A DNA stretch of 64,000 bases. It comes from Alphaproteobacteria bacterium. GTDB lineage: Bacteria; Pseudomonadota; Alphaproteobacteria; CAAHEQ01; UBA3637. Both the position numbers and the translations under genes were made by a program. Of this stretch, positions 1 to 16,796 are shown in pieces. Location of the stretch: positions 141-64,140 of the forward strand of contig JAGCYU010000022.1 in NCBI GenBank assembly GCA_017960645.1, in the 5' to 3' direction. The notes below the pieces were generated by a model. It ran no database searches. It was given only the letters and a program-made list of their open reading frames with translations, and was not told the DNA's origin. Every line of letters begins with the position of its first letter. The stretch's first letter is position 1.

Positions 1-74
1 TCGTTCCGGGGCTCGGAGAGGGGAGAAATTCCTTGCCGGCCAGAGCTTGGGGCACGGGAACCTCGTTCCGGGGG
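1..74. repeat. Short GC-rich REP-like repeat (TCGTTCCGGGG twice; hairpin GGAAC-CTC-GTTCC)
   Basis: TCGTTCCGGGG at 1-11 and 63-73; the first copy may be cut by the window edge. Confidence 0.4.
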
Positions 75-116
75 TTGAAAAAACATTGTCATTAAAAAAA
101 AGAAAGGGGAAAGAAA

Positions 117-1557: not shown

Positions 1558-1579
1558 TACCCCGCTAGGGGCAAAAATT

Positions 1580-1720
1580 AAACCGTCCCAAAACGGACGG
1601 TGTTTTTATTGGTACAACTCGCTTAACGAATACCGAGCCAACAATTTAGCGGATTTTAAAAAGTTGGCATTACGAGTGGAATCGTTAAACTTTTAAGTTT
1701 TTTCACCACAAAAAACTTGC
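1580..1720. repeat. Cassette junction repeat 1 (terminator hairpin + TGGTAC core + left arm)
   Basis: 1580-1632 is identical over 53 nt to 2891-2943; the arm is also similar to 3798-3890. Confidence 0.9.
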
Positions 1721-2926
1721 TTTTTCAAAATGATTATGTTAGGGTATATATTATAGTCAAGGAGATAGAATGAAAAAACTATTTTGTTGTCTGACATTAC
1801 TACTATCAGTAAGTACAATAGCTTTTGCCAAAGAAAATTCCTTGTGTAAAGGTCTTGATTCATCAAGCAAAGCCTGCAAGGTGGTGGCTGACGTTATGTA
1901 CTCTGGCTTTATCAATGGGTATATTAACAGGATGAAAAGATCTGTAACACATCCATATGCTAAGGATAAATTAGTCCAAGATGTAAAAAATTTAATATCA
2001 CGTGATGCTTTTGATTCCATTTTCTATAAATGTGGAGAAACAATTACAGATCAGAGTTTAGCCCATAACTGTTTCGAAGAAGAAATTTTAAAATCTGCTA
2101 TGGTTCGTCATCTGTCTGATTCCACTTCTTCTACAATAACTTCTAACTCCGATAACGCTACTGTTTATGGCATTGGCTGTCAATATAATGAAATATATTT
2201 ACCTATATTTACATATTATCAAAAAAAGTCTACCGATGAAGTAATAAAAATTCTCACCAATTTATCCAATCAGCAAATTTTAGAAAAAGATAATTGCTCT
2301 GCTGCTGGCATTACTGGCTTTATTACTGGATTATTCATTGAACAGCCAGCACTGTATGATCAAATCCATAAACAAAATTATTCAGAAAAAATGCGAAAAC
2401 TCATTGAATTTTCTCATGCAAGTTCAAAAATTATAGATTGGGAAAAAATAGCCAATAATAAATCTTTTTTTGTAAAAACTCTAAATACTTATTGGGGACT
2501 ATTTTTTGCAACAGGAAATGAAACCCCCATAAAAGCAATTGCGAATTTTGCCTACCATAATAAAAGTGAAATAGCGTTACGTGCTAAGATGTCTTTAATC
2601 TTAAATGGTACACAACACCCTATTGTAAAAAAGATTATTGATAAAAATGAATCATAATTACCTCTTGGGTTGAAGGCAACCCATTCAATTAATTGATTTA
2701 TAAAGAAATAAATTTTAAGAGTTCGATAATTTACGGATTTTAGGCCTTTTTTATACCCCCTTGTATGTAAATTGGCTAACGCACAATTTATCCCTCCCTT
2801 TGTTCGGGACCGCCTACGGCGTCGTGTCTGCGGCGTTACATTGCACGCCTTGCCACCAAACCAGCACAAGCGTTTGAAAACAAAAAAGAAAAACCGTCCC
2901 AAAACGGACGGTGTTTTTATTGGTAC
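1610..2926. mobile_element. Non-autonomous tRNA-Leu cassette 1 (1311-bp unit)
   Basis: Bounded by TGGTAC cores at 1610 and 2921; conserved left and right arms; one cargo gene; no integrase. Confidence 0.7.
1770..2657 (+). CDS. Secreted hypothetical protein (cassette 1 cargo)
   Basis: RBS AAGGAG; signal peptide ending AFA; 295 aa; family not recognised. Confidence 0.75.
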   Translation: MKKLFCCLTLLLSVSTIAFAKENSLCKGLDSSSKACKVVADVMYSGFINGYINRMKRSVTHPYAKDKLVQDVKNLISRDAFDSIFYKCGETITDQSLAHNCFEEEILKSAMVRHLSDSTSSTITSNSDNATVYGIGCQYNEIYLPIFTYYQKKSTDEVIKILTNLSNQQILEKDNCSAAGITGFITGLFIEQPALYDQIHKQNYSEKMRKLIEFSHASSKIIDWEKIANNKSFFVKTLNTYWGLFFATGNETPIKAIANFAYHNKSEIALRAKMSLILNGTQHPIVKKIIDKNES

Positions 2927-3017
2927 AACTCGCTTAACGAATATCGAACCAATCATCCAGAGGATTTCAAAAAATTGGCACAGCAAATTGATCTATTGAA
3001 GTTTTAATTTTAGTTGC
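2720..3017. repeat. Cassette junction repeat 2 (long right arm + hairpin + core + left arm)
   Basis: 2720-2926 matches 5457-5662 with about 8 differences by eye. Confidence 0.95.
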
Positions 3018-3803
3018 AAAATTTTTCAGTTTACCTTAGCATCTACCTTAAAGGAAAAAATCATGAAATTATTTTTAAGTGGTTTGAAATTTGGAATGTT
3101 GCTACAAATTGCTGTGGGCCCTATGTGCTTAATGGTGTTCAATACAGCGAAAAATACAGGGTTCTTAACTGCTTTATCTTTAATCTTAGCAATTACACTC
3201 GTGGATGCGCTTTACATCACTTTAGCTGGCTTAGGTGTAAGTAAATTATTAAAGGGACAAAAGCGTACAAAAATTTTAAAAATGATTGGTGCTTTTGTTT
3301 TAGTATTTTTTGGACTTAGCATTATTTTAAATGTGGTCGGCATCAATGTCGTTCCGGGATTAAATTTAACCCCAACTGCAACAAGCATTTTTGTCCAAGG
3401 TTTGATACTAACACTATCTAATCCACTTACCATAGTTTTTTGGACAAGTGTTCTTGTAGATAAAATTATAGAAGATAAATTAAAAAACAAACAATTAATT
3501 ATTTTTTCATTTGGATTGGTTTCCGCAACATTATTGTTTTTGTCCGGCGTAGCTATACTCGGCAGGACTCTTTCAACATTTATCCCGGCTATGATTTCTG
3601 ATGTATTAAATATTGCTGTTGGTCTTTTAATTATATTTTTTGGGATTAGATTATTTGTTCGTCATTAAAAACACAAATCACATTCCAAGAGTTCGATAAA
3701 TTACGAATTTTGGCACTTTCGGAAGTGGATTTATCGAACCAATACAAGCACTTGGAAACAAAAAGAAAAACCGTCCCAAATCGGACGGTGAATTTTTTGG
3801 TAC
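2921..3803. mobile_element. Non-autonomous tRNA-Leu cassette 2 (877-bp unit)
   Basis: TGGTAC cores at 2921 and 3798; short right arm with GTTCGATAAAT/ATTTATCGAAC inverted repeat. Confidence 0.7.
3063..3668 (+). CDS. LysE-family amino acid exporter (cassette 2 cargo)
   Basis: N-terminal IAVGP motif, LTLSNPLTIVFW, about 6 TM segments, 201 aa. Confidence 0.9.
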   Translation: MKLFLSGLKFGMLLQIAVGPMCLMVFNTAKNTGFLTALSLILAITLVDALYITLAGLGVSKLLKGQKRTKILKMIGAFVLVFFGLSIILNVVGINVVPGLNLTPTATSIFVQGLILTLSNPLTIVFWTSVLVDKIIEDKLKNKQLIIFSFGLVSATLLFLSGVAILGRTLSTFIPAMISDVLNIAVGLLIIFFGIRLFVRH

Positions 3804-3890
3804 AGCTCGCTTAAAGAACATCGGGCCAACAATTTAGAGGATTTCAAAAAATTGGCTCTGCAGCTGAGTCGTTAAACTTTTAAGTTTTTT
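3690..3890. repeat. Cassette junction repeat 3 (short right arm + hairpin + core + left arm)
   Basis: AGTTCGATAA start, ACCGTCC...GGACGGT hairpin 3770-3789, TGGTAC 3798. Confidence 0.9.
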
Positions 3891-3911: not shown

Positions 3912-5393
3912 CTACCGTCCGCCGGGGCCATCATTGCCACCATTACCACCCAATCCTAGAATATGGCTAAACAACCCCTTAATATCTCCAGACTGTGAGG
4001 ATTTTTGGGAAGATTGATTGGGGTGATTTCTTTTAAGCTCCTCCCGCAGGCGAGAACGTAGTTTAGTCATCATTTCTACTGTGTGTGTCTCTAGGCTCAT
4101 AGTGGCCATTAATGCATTCACAAGGTCATTTTTATTCATGGTATTAAGAGCAAGCGTCCGCAATTTTACGTAGTGAATTCTTAACCGTTCTTCCTCTAAT
4201 ATATCGGTCAAATCTTCCTTTTGAAAAACTATTTTATCAAGATATTCTTCATCTAGACAAATGTCTTCTGCATCTGGTAAATTAAAATGTCGTGTCTTAG
4301 GATTTCTCAGTATAAAACCTTGATTTTCTGGGGAGTCATCATCAATGATAAAGCCTGTAAATAAATACCCGCGATAATCTTCTTTGGGAACAACAGGGAA
4401 TTTTTCTGTGTCTACTCCCGCCTTTTTCAATCGTTCAGTTTGTTTTTTGATATCGCCACCGGTAAAGATTGTCACTTTTTCATATTTAGAAATTGCAACC
4501 AATGTTTCATACAGGCCTTCTCTAAAATTCCCTTCATCATCAAATAAAGTACCATCGATATCAACCCAAATACCGCTGACTTCACCTTTTGGGTGTTCCC
4601 TTAGCACTTTTTGAAACTTTTCAACTTGCGCAAGGGAGTTATGAGAGTTACTTGGCATAACACAGTTTTGTATCTTTGCATCAGGGTATTTTTTCAATAT
4701 ATCTTTCCATTCTGATGTACTGATTGGTGTTGGTATGCCTTGTTTTTCAGTGTCAACTTCAGCATATCTTTCAATCCAATCTCGTAGTGTTGTTGCATTG
4801 AGAAAGGTTTGTATTTCTTTTGAAGTAATGAATGAATTCTCGCCATATGAAGAATCAACAAACGGCAAATTAGCAAACTGTGGAGAACGAAAACTTTTGG
4901 GCATAACCAGTGGAGCATCAAGGCCATTTTCTTTTAATTGATCCCAGTTATACACCATAAAACCAGCAATCACACGTTCCATGGAATTAATTGCGTATGC
5001 ATCACCAACCTCAGCTGTCTTCTTTGCCAAAAAATCAGCTAATTGAAGTGCATATTCAATATTTTGTTTGTTTAAAAGATAATTCCTCGCATTGTGTTGA
5101 TTGATATCATATTCAAAACCATCGCTGATATGACATGAATGGCGCCAATAACCAAACTCTTGACCTTGTTCTTTTTGTGTTTTGCCTGTCAAATCAGGGA
5201 AACCCTCTATTATGGCATTGATAATTGCTTTTTTTTGAGATGGCTTTAACAAAGCAGGATCATAATCCACAGATGCGGGATCAAATAATCGCATTAAAAC
5301 AGAACTGTCCACCTCACCACGTTTGAGATAAGATGTTTGAATAATTTCGGGAAAAAGTTTAAAAATTTCTGGATTAATATCTGTTACTTTCAT
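3912..5393 (-). CDS. Hypothetical protein with HAD-superfamily domain (cassette 3 cargo)
   Basis: HAD motifs IWVDIDGTL, IFTGG, FIIDDD; RBS AAGGAG; low-complexity C-terminal tail ending GGR. Confidence 0.7.
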   Translation of the reverse strand: MKVTDINPEIFKLFPEIIQTSYLKRGEVDSSVLMRLFDPASVDYDPALLKPSQKKAIINAIIEGFPDLTGKTQKEQGQEFGYWRHSCHISDGFEYDINQHNARNYLLNKQNIEYALQLADFLAKKTAEVGDAYAINSMERVIAGFMVYNWDQLKENGLDAPLVMPKSFRSPQFANLPFVDSSYGENSFITSKEIQTFLNATTLRDWIERYAEVDTEKQGIPTPISTSEWKDILKKYPDAKIQNCVMPSNSHNSLAQVEKFQKVLREHPKGEVSGIWVDIDGTLFDDEGNFREGLYETLVAISKYEKVTIFTGGDIKKQTERLKKAGVDTEKFPVVPKEDYRGYLFTGFIIDDDSPENQGFILRNPKTRHFNLPDAEDICLDEEYLDKIVFQKEDLTDILEEERLRIHYVKLRTLALNTMNKNDLVNALMATMSLETHTVEMMTKLRSRLREELKRNHPNQSSQKSSQSGDIKGLFSHILGLGGNGGNDGPGGR

Positions 5394-5456
5394 CGTAATC
5401 TCCTTGTTGTTATATGAACATTATACCACAGATTTTCAGAATGACAAGCTTTTTTT

Positions 5457-5662
5457 AGTTCGATAATTTACGATTTTAGGCCCTTTTTATACCCCCTTGT
5501 ATGTAAATTGGCTAACGCACAATTTATCCCTCACTTTGTTCGGGACCGCCTACGGCGTCGTGTCTGCGGCGTTACATTGCACGCCTTGCCACCAAACCAG
5601 CACAAGCGTTTGAAAACAAAAAAGAAAAACCGTCCAAAATTGGACGGTGAATTTATTGGTAC
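5457..5662. repeat. Cassette junction repeat 4 (long right arm abutting tRNA-Leu)
   Basis: Near-identical to 2720-2926. Confidence 0.95.
5618..5648 (-). terminator. Rho-independent terminator of tRNA-Leu (copies at 1582, 2893, 3770)
   Basis: ACCGTCC stem-loop followed by a T-rich run on the minus strand just after CCA. Confidence 0.8.
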
Positions 5663-5743
5663 CTCTGGTCGGACTTGAACCAACACTCTATTGCTAGAAA
5701 CAGATTTTGAGTCTGTCGCGTCTACCAATTTCGCCACAGAGGC
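5657..5743 (-). tRNA. tRNA-Leu(CAA)
   Basis: GCCTCTG...CAGAGGT-A-CCA acceptor; anticodon arm ACAGA-CTCAAAA-TCTGT; long variable arm; GTTCAAG T-loop. Confidence 0.97.
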
Positions 5744-5803: not shown

Positions 5804-6580
5804 ATGTTGTTTAAAACTTACACACCTAAAACAATTTTTATCACAGGCGCTTCCAGCGGGCTTGGCGCGGCGTTGGCCAAAGAATACGCCACCGAATCAA
5901 CAACCTTACATCTATGTGGACGCAACAAAGAACGCTTGGACAAAACAGCGGCTTTATGCAAAAGCCGTGGGGCGAAAGTTTACACCTATCTGTTTGACGT
6001 TCAAAAAGCCGACGAGGCACAAAAGGCATTAGAAAAAGCCTATCAGCGCACACCTTTGGATCTGGTCATTGCCAACGCTGGCGTATCAGGTGGCGTATTG
6101 GGTGATAAAGAAACTGCAGATGCAACACGCCGCATTATGCAAACGAATATTTTTGGCATGCTAAATACTGTTTTGCCTGCACTGTCTTTGATGAGAAAAC
6201 GCCGTAAAGGGCAAATCGCTATTGTTGCTTCATTAGCGGGCTATCGCGGCATGGCCAGCTGTCCGGCCTATTCTGCCAGCAAAGCCTGTGCCAAGGCGTT
6301 TGGAGAAGCTTTATACGGGCAACAAAAATCCCGCGGTATCCGTGTCACAACTATCTGTCCCGGTTTTATTGAAACACCTTTAACGGACAAAAACAAATTC
6401 TATATGCCATTTTTGATGCAGGCTCCTCAGGCAGCGTATATCATCCGCAAACGTTTAATGCATGCGCCCGCCATTATTGCTTTCCCGTGGATGATGCGCT
6501 TTGGTGCGTGGATTGGATCATGTTTGCCCAGCTGTATTGCCCTGCCCTTATTTGCGCTTTTTCCCAAAAAAGAAAAATAA
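5804..6580 (+). CDS. SDR family oxidoreductase
   Basis: TGASSGLG, NAG and YSASK motifs. Confidence 0.93.
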   Translation: MLFKTYTPKTIFITGASSGLGAALAKEYATESTTLHLCGRNKERLDKTAALCKSRGAKVYTYLFDVQKADEAQKALEKAYQRTPLDLVIANAGVSGGVLGDKETADATRRIMQTNIFGMLNTVLPALSLMRKRRKGQIAIVASLAGYRGMASCPAYSASKACAKAFGEALYGQQKSRGIRVTTICPGFIETPLTDKNKFYMPFLMQAPQAAYIIRKRLMHAPAIIAFPWMMRFGAWIGSCLPSCIALPLFALFPKKEK

Positions 6581-15638: not shown

Positions 15639-16796
15639 ATGAAAAAAATCGTTTTAGCACTTGCCGCTTGTGGCGTAATTGTAGGTAGTGGTATATTATG
15701 GGGGAATTTAGCATCTGCCAATGAAGAAAAAACGTCCGAAGAGATTGAAGCTCTTGCAAAATCTTCAGCTGTTTTAGCCATTACGGATCAACACTCTGTC
15801 AATCAATCCTATAATGTTTTGGAACGTTGGATTACACAACAACCGAAGGAGAATGCGCAAAGCCGCGAGAACAAAGGAGAGGACATACACCAAGAGCAAA
15901 CTGCACAGGATTGGGCTGTATATTATTCCGAATGTTATAAAACAGAAAAAGGTTGCTGTGTTACTATACAGGAAGATGGTACTTGCACCTATGACAAGAA
16001 AACTTTAGCTGAACGCAAACAACGCATGGAACAAGTTTGTGCGGAAGGTCATCCTGAACACGCAAAATGTAATCAAGCATTGTTAGGGGAACTTCAAAAA
16101 GTAGAAAACATGTCCGAAGATGACAGACAAGACCTCTTACAAGCCCGTGCTTATGAAGCAAGAAAAGACATAAATGTAAAATTAGGTCAAGGGGGAGAAC
16201 CTGGAGCACCTGCCATTGTGTTCAATAATAGAGGGAATCCACTCACTGAGGCCCCTCTCTCAATGGTATTTCCCACTTCAGAAGCAGTCCATAATGCTTC
16301 ACACGATGCTTCTAGGAAAGACGATATCAGCCCTGAGCAAACATCTGCAATCAGAGCAAATGATGCCTATACCCGTCAACTTGTTGAATATTCTAACAAA
16401 TCAGAAGAACAATTAAAGGCCATGGGTGTAGATGACACAACAATAAAAAAAGCACAGGAAATGCATGAACTCATAAAGGATTTAACACCGGTCCAACAAA
16501 AACAATTTGCAGATTACGTTGCCAATGAACAACTCAAAAGGCGTAAAGAACGTCATGCAGATATACTTCAAAAGCTATGGGATGAAATTCAAAGAGATGC
16601 CGATGAACAAAGACGAAAAGAACTGGCCGCATTACATAATGAATTGGCTGGAATTCAAAAGATGCTTGGTTCAGAAAATGTCGATTGCAATCCGAATAAT
16701 CCAGGAGATTGCTATAAAGTTTATGATGCAGAAACCCCACAAGGCGTATCTGTTACTGGCGGCCGAACAATGAGTGAGACCATCGATATCAGGTAA
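15639..16796 (+). CDS. Secreted Cys-rich hypothetical protein, paralog C
   Basis: RBS AGGAGG; signal peptide ending ASA; homologous to paralog B. Confidence 0.8.
   Translation: MKKIVLALAACGVIVGSGILWGNLASANEEKTSEEIEALAKSSAVLAITDQHSVNQSYNVLERWITQQPKENAQSRENKGEDIHQEQTAQDWAVYYSECYKTEKGCCVTIQEDGTCTYDKKTLAERKQRMEQVCAEGHPEHAKCNQALLGELQKVENMSEDDRQDLLQARAYEARKDINVKLGQGGEPGAPAIVFNNRGNPLTEAPLSMVFPTSEAVHNASHDASRKDDISPEQTSAIRANDAYTRQLVEYSNKSEEQLKAMGVDDTTIKKAQEMHELIKDLTPVQQKQFADYVANEQLKRRKERHADILQKLWDEIQRDADEQRRKELAALHNELAGIQKMLGSENVDCNPNNPGDCYKVYDAETPQGVSVTGGRTMSETIDIR

Follow-up and report, generated by a model that had tools for sequence, protein, structure and literature searches.

Start-less peptide arms of a tRNA-Leu cassette array as the probable detached C-terminus of a tRNA-targeting large serine recombinase

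In a 64,000-nucleotide (nt) stretch of an alphaproteobacterial genome (GenBank assembly GCA_017960645.1, contig JAGCYU010000022.1, positions 141 to 64,140; hereafter the window, meaning this stretch at its full length), three small cassettes stand in tandem beside a transfer RNA (tRNA) gene, tRNA-Leu(CAA), and the left arm of each carries a conserved peptide frame. Comparison with relatives makes it highly probable that these left arms are the terminal 28 codons of a gene for a large serine recombinase (LSR), a gene that carries its own attachment site, attP, within the coding sequence. The preliminary description of this DNA had taken the peptide for the probable split C-terminus of a recombinase, and the arm peptide indeed ends a 561-amino-acid (aa) LSR in the related genome G079. 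The plus-strand hexamer TGGTAC, the 3' end of tRNA-Leu(CAA) in reverse complement, recurs at 1610, 2921 and 3798, and the array is composed of the following features.

1573..1609: flank of junction 1, a terminator-like hairpin ACCGTCCCAAAACGGACGGT and a T-run
1610..1696, plus strand: left arm 1, opening with the core TGGTAC (1610-1615), 28 start-less codons and a stop, WYNSLNEYRANNLADFKKLALRVESLNF-stop
1770..2657, plus strand: cargo 1, a 295-aa open reading frame (ORF) without a Pfam match whose N-terminus resembles a signal peptide
2712..2920, plus strand: right arm 1, opening GTTCGATAATTTACGG, with a hairpin (2893-2912) at its end
2921..3007, plus strand: left arm 2, core, 28 codons and a stop, WYNSLNEYRTNHPEDFKKLAQQIDLLKF-stop
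3063..3668, plus strand: cargo 2, a LysE-type translocator of 201 aa (PF01810, E 1e-27)
3682..3797, plus strand: right arm 2, a recombinase 3'-end relic, with a hairpin at 3770-3789
3798..3883, plus strand: left arm 3, core and tail codons that lack 1 nt close to their end, WYSSLKEHRANNLEDFKKLALQL / SLNF-stop
3912..5393, minus strand: cargo 3, a 493-aa ORF without a Pfam match
5449..5656, plus strand: right arm 3, adjoining the tRNA gene, with a hairpin (5629-5648) followed by TTTTCTTTTT
5657-5743, minus strand: tRNA-Leu(CAA), the attachment target, whose last six bases, GTACCA, are the core

Each interval between arms holds a single gene, giving three cassettes in the window. The three left arms lie where the preliminary description had placed them, including the -1 frameshift of arm 3, which reads WYSSLKEHRANNLEDFKKLALQLSR-stop from its TGG and, after the 1-nt shift, ...ESLNF-stop, ending at 3883. 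None of the three has a start codon, and their stop-to-stop frames span 1547-1696, 2780-3007 and 3792-3875. The arms belong to a single 128-nt repeat family, D1 (1573-1700, 2884-3011 and 3761-3888), of which the second and third copies are 80% and 74% identical to the first.

Across 61 genomes, all of the window's taxonomic family, a protein profile of the arms gave 51 matches at E <= 1e-4, and 50 of these 51 lie in open frames of 21-85 aa, as would be expected for detached gene ends; the one exception, a 403-aa frame in genome G032 that contains an arm, is a truncated ABC-transporter-like gene and was set aside as a chance in-frame fusion. A profile built from DNA, and therefore independent of reading frame, recovered the window arms at E values of 1e-22 to 1e-24, a likeness that chance cannot explain, and yielded 51 arms in the loci of relatives, 47 of them unique; these arm counts come from mutually related sequences and do not represent independent events. 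In the 47 unique arms, column entropy at the three codon positions is 0.87, 0.71 and 1.18, respectively, and the ratio of non-synonymous to synonymous differences (pN/pS) is 0.52 in the proposed frame compared to 0.89 and 1.09 in the shifted frames, so that the earlier observation of many synonymous differences among the three window arms holds for the larger set as well. A stop codon occurs within the first 24 codons in 5 of the 47 arms in the proposed frame vs. 44 of 47 in each shifted frame, and a net frameshift within these 24 codons occurs in none (0 of 47). Both a codon-position bias in a larger set of arms and recombinases that end in the peptide, the joint absence of which would have spoken against the original proposal, were thus found. 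The arms bear the signature of divergence under protein-level constraint. Two tail subtypes (LEDFKKLAQQIELLKF and IKEIDELYRLIESLSF; ...NNLEDFKKLAQQIELLKF and ...NNIKEIDELYRLIESLSF) differ strongly in DNA while sharing one hydrophobic pattern and spacing; tails of the WW-class are common among the relatives.

The gene from which the arms derive was traced through relatives. A search of a protein collection with the arms plus 13 upstream codons returned 12 proteins, among them fragments that form one ORF of the type ...AKEIFKSSINEEKHKILKLILSNSQVNGKNLYFSINKPFDKLL.SKGC../WYS.LSEYRA... (here and below, a slash marks the beginning of the arm or tail), with the arm colinear with the upstream ORF in P0001, P0003, P0005, P0007 and P0008. 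In the DNA of relatives, the right-arm motif GTTCGATAAAT encodes SSIN, the hairpin encodes KPFDKLLFSKG, and the left arm follows in the same frame; given that the fragments run through in one ORF, right-arm motif, hairpin and left arm are therefore colinear coding sequence. When 80 genomes of the family were searched with the 174-aa fragment P0003, full-length frames were recovered in two forms. The unsplit form is represented by the G079 ORF (locus L074, 361..2046, 561 aa), which ends ...SKGCKT/WYSVLSEYRANNIKEIDELYRLIESLSFQLQLEQAI-stop, and no tRNA gene was found in that locus. The split form is represented by the ORF of genome G077 (locus L070, 337..1992, 551 aa), which ends ...SKGCKT/WYLWPDLNQHDVAINRF-stop and overlaps tRNA-Leu(CAA); this locus is followed by a short-chain dehydrogenase gene, as is found in the window at 5804-6580. 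A second full-length unsplit form (P0013, 560 aa) has a third tail subtype, WYQVLRDYRINYPEELL..., and a further protein search added three tRNA-tailed forms (P0014-P0016). The domains Resolvase (PF00239), Recombinase (PF07508) and Zn_ribbon_recom (PF13408) were identified above cut-offs in both the G079 and the G077 ORFs, and nothing scored above cut-off in the fragments P0003, P0012 and P0009. An AlphaFold2 model of the G079 protein (pLDDT 83.7) has as its top Foldseek matches the serine integrase complexes 9dxd, 9y66, 9iu2 (Bxb1), 9tep (PhiC31) and 4kis (A118), and the tail is modelled as two helices, 523-536 and 538-560. Judged by these relatives, the parent of the arms is an LSR. The catalytic and DNA-binding domains all lie N-terminal of the crossover point, and the tRNA-tailed enzyme may still be active. 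The W...YR motif of the arm peptide had also been considered as the end of a Cre-like tyrosine recombinase, a candidate that was dropped, the upstream ORF being an LSR.

The preliminary description had further proposed that, upon integration, the integrase would read into the antisense strand of the tRNA gene and end in WYLWSDLNQH..., and had predicted matches at LSR C-termini next to tRNA-Leu. Such matches occur in relatives, where ORFs end GCKT/WYLWPDLNQH... at tRNA-Leu(CAA); the antisense frame of the window's own tRNA-Leu(CAA) reads WYLWSDLNQHSIARNRF-stop (5657-5710). Of the eight best loci, six have tRNA-Leu(CAA) at the ORF end, with the tails WYLWPDLNQH..., WYL-stop or WYLQSDSN-stop. One base in the acceptor stem of tRNA-Leu (TGGTACCTCTAG vs. 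...CTGG; loci L083 and L084 vs. L070, L085 and L087) sets the end of the recombinase, which is either WYL-stop or the run-on WYLWPDLNQH...F-stop. In genome G094 (locus L083), the two parts of one gene stand at opposite ends of an element of about 14.7 kb: the tRNA gene occupies 1965-2051, a 526-aa recombinase body runs from 3620 to 2043, and a 36-codon tail, 94% identical to that of G079, lies on the same strand at 16762 to 16655. The attL and attR of this element have only TGGTAC in common, in keeping with the short cores typical of serine integrases. At attR, the flanking hairpin is the one within the recombinase ORF, and attL is flanked by another hairpin, presumably the tRNA's original terminator. 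At the tRNA-Leu site of genome G005, neither an arm nor a recombinase relic was found within 1.5 kb, and this site may be unoccupied. In G079, the contig ends 1.9 kb downstream of the unsplit LSR, and the tRNA-Leu site, with a recombinase 3' relic, is on another contig.

To describe the wider distribution of this clade, one genome per species was scanned with an alignment of seven recombinases of this type, which identified 78 related LSR loci. In 38 of the 78, the ORF end overlaps a convergent tRNA gene with the W codon on the CCA, and the tRNAs overlapped are those for Leu, Thr, Met, Pro, Asn, Gln, Glu, Asp, His and Tyr; most of the remaining loci have the tail form W..(I/V)..(N/H)L(D/E).F.... 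The hosts are mostly labelled as metagenome-assembled genomes of uncultured Alphaproteobacteria, and other loci carry the host labels Gastranaerophilales, Chlamydiota, Dependentiae, Peregrinibacteria and Saccharibacteria.

These observations suggest the following course of events. In the unsplit, free form, the ORF would read ...KPFDKLLFSKGCKT-W-Y and continue into a helical tail of 28-36 residues, with the crossover core TGGTAC serving both as the W-Y codons and as the antisense of GTACCA at the 3' end of tRNA-Leu(CAA). Integration would set the recombinase body against the tRNA gene, so that the ORF then ends in a few tRNA-antisense codons, and would leave the start-less tail codons at the far end of the element. 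The window would then hold three such elements in tandem, each having lost its recombinase and left with three parts: the tail as left arm, a single cargo gene and, as right arm, a 115-210-nt remnant of the recombinase gene's 3' end, whose hairpin would now occupy the position of the tRNA terminator. We infer the order of the integrations and the loss of the recombinases by deletion, together with the terminator role of the hairpin and whatever effect the tail swap may have on enzyme activity. The window cassettes can be read as deletion derivatives or as recombinase-less relatives of such elements, stacked at one tRNA gene.

The right arms open with GTTCGATAA.TTACG (family D4) and continue for 115-210 nt up to the hairpin. 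Over 191 nt (family D2; 5472-5662 in arm 3), right arm 1 matches right arm 3 at 96% identity, compared to 74-80% among the left arms. In an nhmmer search with a profile of seven recombinase 3' ends, window positions 3682-3756 in right arm 2 matched profile positions 101-174 (E 2.2e-4), and the opening motif and the hairpin are all that right arms 1 and 3 have in common with this profile-matched arm. Right arm 1 is read as a probable decayed recombinase 3' end by the motif that it shares with 3682-3719. Four junction hairpins are found in the window (1582-1601, 2893-2912, 3770-3789 and 5629-5648), all of the form ACCGTCC-loop-GGACGGT, and that of right arm 3 lies directly downstream of tRNA-Leu on the minus strand. 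Upstream of 1573, the DNA has no relation to the right arms; the leftmost junction (1573-1609) carries the hairpin without a right arm before it, and the contig ends about 1.7 kb further left, so that this junction may not be the outer end of the array. The hairpin inside the recombinase ORF was also assessed as RNA: in 36 loci of the series L093-L170, several of them near-duplicates, the 50 nt downstream of the tRNA on the tRNA strand are more stably folded than shuffled sequences, with a mean fold z of -2.96 vs. -0.09 in control segments from these ORFs. In many loci the hairpin has a T-run after it. A strict RNAfold criterion was passed by only 6 of the 36, and in locus L094 a terminator pattern scan gave no site where the hairpin lies within the ORF. 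The KPFD...G codons may possibly double as a replacement tRNA terminator on the other strand.

Several results weigh against the derivation of the window arms from integrated LSR elements. The 561-aa query detected arm 1 alone in the window's genome (E 0.0019) and no LSR of the clade, and the assignment therefore rests on relatives. PF07508 has no match in this genome, and none of its 7 tyrosine and 5 serine recombinase frames has the arm peptide at its end. No circular junction was seen, and the contigs of four sequencing runs break at the repeats: those of runs X2 and X4 cover the window array in pieces that end at repeats, one low-depth contig of run X6 joins 3690-3728 to the tRNA gene with 70 other letters between, and a 1661 to 3243 joint in runs X4 and X5 is anchored on one side by only 20 letters; neither excision nor a circle is evident from any of these contigs. 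Of the three right arms, the recombinase 3' profile detected one, leaving arms 1 and 3 undetected. The two full-length unsplit LSRs carry tail subtypes other than those of the window arms, and the copies of the LEDFKKLA subtype seen joined to recombinase sequence are confined to 3' fragments and a pseudogene (P0001, P0003, P0008 and G073, the last with 2 stops). The four window hairpins are of one type, unlike the hairpin within intact LSR genes, and since one type stands at all junctions, a simple sequential integration of intact elements is insufficient to account for the array. Furthermore, cassettes of relatives whose cargo is 96% identical can have arms that are only 70% identical. In the pair L052:3293 and L056:5245 and five other pairs, cargo is 81-96% identical and left arms are 70-93% identical, a pattern suggestive of reshuffling between arms and cargo. 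These mismatches, the uniform hairpins of the window and the closer likeness of its right arms 1 and 3 might each reflect gene conversion, homologous exchange between arrays, or the mobilisation of cassettes that lack a recombinase. The cassette ORFs in genome G019 gave no lead. The parent element proposed in the preliminary description is supported in substance: split and unsplit LSRs occur in relatives, and body and tail are separated in G094. Its two limits are that the window's own genome lacks such a recombinase and that the circle was not seen directly.

Among the alternatives, we see a limited chance that the arms are still in use, either as spare 3' exons that complete the recombinase of a distal neighbour or as sites for mobilisation in trans. 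The left arms are far better preserved than the right arms, the unsplit LSR of G079 lies near a contig end while its tRNA-Leu site, with a recombinase 3' relic, is elsewhere, and McMurdie et al. (PMC3146451) proposed such completion by a neighbouring island for the recombinase DsiB. However, no LSR lies upstream of any window arm, arm 3 is frameshifted, stops occur in five of the 47 arms, and in 7 non-independent pairs of cassettes whose cargo is homologous, 33 synonymous and 59 non-synonymous codon differences separate the arms, with no clear indication of ongoing constraint. We rate as similarly doubtful the idea that the tail swap is a built-in switch, that orphan tails persist by re-arming recombinases in tandem arrays, and that the KPFD...G codons are at the same time the tRNA terminator. 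Under this idea, the recombinase would have the conserved helical tail only on the excised circle or beside a neighbour's orphan tail and a meaningless tRNA-antisense tail when integrated next to the tRNA gene, and integration itself would alter activity or directionality without a separate factor.

It is much less probable that the arms are conserved as DNA only, as the recombinase-binding half-site (P') of an att site, with the open frame being incidental. The att half-sites of LSRs are about 20-25 bp long. The first 30 nt or so of the arms are the most conserved (entropy by codon position 0.57, 0.61 and 0.85 in codons 1-10 vs. 1.04, 0.76 and 1.37 in codons 11-28), the tRNA-Pro(GGG) arrays of this genome retain only about 30 nt after the core, and for the first 10 codons the half-site and the coding readings are compatible. 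Codons 11-24 alone, however, still have a pN/pS of 0.46 in the proposed frame compared to 0.67 and 1.26 in the other frames, the two tail subtypes are alike in residue pattern and not in DNA, and full-length LSR ORFs end in frame with this very sequence. That the arms are a small independent peptide or degenerate tRNA copies is scarcely credible, even though the frame is open and the arm sequence TCGA(A/G)CC looks like a T-loop read in antisense. The frame lacks a start codon and is immediately preceded, on its own strand, by a terminator-like hairpin; the T-loop-like motif is displaced by 5 nt from the register of the real tRNA, and ARAGORN calls no tRNA in the arms. An integron cassette array was also considered and rejected: integrons have an IntI-type tyrosine integrase, an attI site and attC sites of the form RYYYAAC...GTTRRRY, no integrase lies beside the window array, and the right-arm inverted repeat GTTCGAT...ATCGAAC is inside recombinase coding sequence. 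We thus retain the detached LSR C-terminus as the explanation of the left arms.

The window's genome contains a second arm of the family at tRNA-Met(CAT) (C17:30718-31790, locus L014), with a different flank, the core TTGGTGGG, a homologous tail WWGAISTYRANNPADLKALVSRLIP-stop and the right-arm motif. The 3' ends of several other tRNA genes, together with the downstream 40 nt, are repeated nearby: C3:49589-53730 (tRNA-Pro GGG), C3:104285-107159 (tRNA-Met), C3:111385 (tRNA-Lys CTT), C18:1151-2184 (tRNA-Glu CTC) and C29:13380-43761 (tRNA-Met). The array at tRNA-Pro(GGG) has three cassettes, with left arms that are conserved over about 30 nt only and lack the 28-codon frame. This genome holds many such tRNA-linked arrays. 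Other recombinase genes are present. Four similar small serine recombinases of about 205-250 aa (C3:100482-101252, C3:26217-26855, C11:18566-19285 and C29:22674-23306) include two that adjoin tRNA genes (tRNA-Phe and tRNA-Leu GAG), and a right-arm-like motif lies just beyond tRNA-Phe. The N-terminal part of a different LSR runs off a contig end at C3:1-816 (minus strand), with its C-terminus not in the assembly; it is unlike the G079 type by eye and was not matched by the G079 query. Four unusually long tyrosine recombinase frames of about 550-600 aa adjoin tRNA genes (C31:10099-11886, C29:13766-15559, C14:18074-19894 and C18:2516-4159), one of them at the edge of a stretch of about 30 kb bounded by a tRNA-Met 3'-end repeat. 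At the contig start, window positions 1-100 are G+C-rich relative to the rest of the window and contain a repeated CGTTCCGGGG-like motif, with alternative joints (19 to 98/99 and 44 to 92) in contigs of runs X2 and X4. The adjacent 117-620 encodes a secreted, cysteine-rich 167-aa ORF without a Pfam match, for which a tblastn listing includes a paralogous stretch, NDPND.NLTNNCNGKKFC, on another contig of the same genome (C3:~69143-69217).

If the arms are LSR tails, a conserved peptide without a start codon is explained as the far end of a split recombinase gene, and the small cassettes beside tRNA-Leu would be the remains of serine-integrase islands. For annotation, such tails would mark old integration junctions, and recombinase ORFs with tRNA-antisense ends would be integrated forms and not full-length proteins. 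Should the tail swap regulate activity, it would offer a simple self-limiting control for integrases used as genome-engineering tools. An integrase gene that spans its own attP is known already, and the layout has been little described for tRNA genes; the notable points here are the target at the CCA end, the protein-level conservation of the detached tail and the survival of orphan tails in recombinase-less arrays. A search of full-text literature, which lay outside subscription journals and supplements, returned no tRNA-targeting LSR with attP inside its gene.

The integrases of A118/LI, Bxb1, PhiC31 and TP901-1 share domain order, fold and a short crossover core with the present LSR, and an attP inside the gene is not known for any of them. 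The A118 integrase (4kis) aligns by sequence profile only up to ...LKLLL.DC.LNGK.L, so that the stretch of roughly 45 residues that begins at KPFD and includes the tail extends beyond the canonical fold. Among tyrosine recombinases, the SSV1 integrase is split near its N-terminus, and in that of Mx8 a longer C-terminal part is replaced. According to the Islander paper (PMC4383910), the integrases of Mx8 (IntP/IntX) and SSV extend across attP, so that, as in the present LSR, integration alters or splits the protein; the Mx8 and SSV1 enzymes are tyrosine recombinases, whereas the present enzyme is a serine recombinase. The same paper states that, as of 2014, serine integrases were not known to target tRNA genes; the loci of relatives reveal a widespread LSR clade aimed at the CCA end in many of these genes. 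Tycheposons, the tRNA-linked islands of Prochlorococcus, resemble the window array in their stacking with remnants (bioRxiv 10.1101/2020.12.28.424599): they are built up as successive elements integrate at a single site, with partial tRNA repeats and degenerate remnants. Tyrosine recombinases are used by 910 of 937 elements and a large serine recombinase by a minority, and the text consulted does not mention an integrase gene spanning attP.

The closest published precedent that we found is the layout of DsiB, a serine recombinase of about 540 aa at the edge of the ssrA islands of Dehalococcoides (McMurdie et al. 2011, PMC3146451). According to that paper, the 3' end of dsiB always overlaps attL with its stop codon in ssrA or in an adjacent island, the islands form tandem arrays, 15 islands lack an integration module, and the authors suggest that dsiB may need the circle, or a neighbouring island next to it, to be complete. 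DsiB targets the gene for transfer-messenger RNA, with insertion in the T-loop and a 20-bp repeat, whereas the present system uses true tRNA genes, the CCA end and a 6-bp core; and whereas the overlapping C-terminal part of DsiB is divergent and its function was doubted by the authors, the tail described here is conserved with a coding signature.

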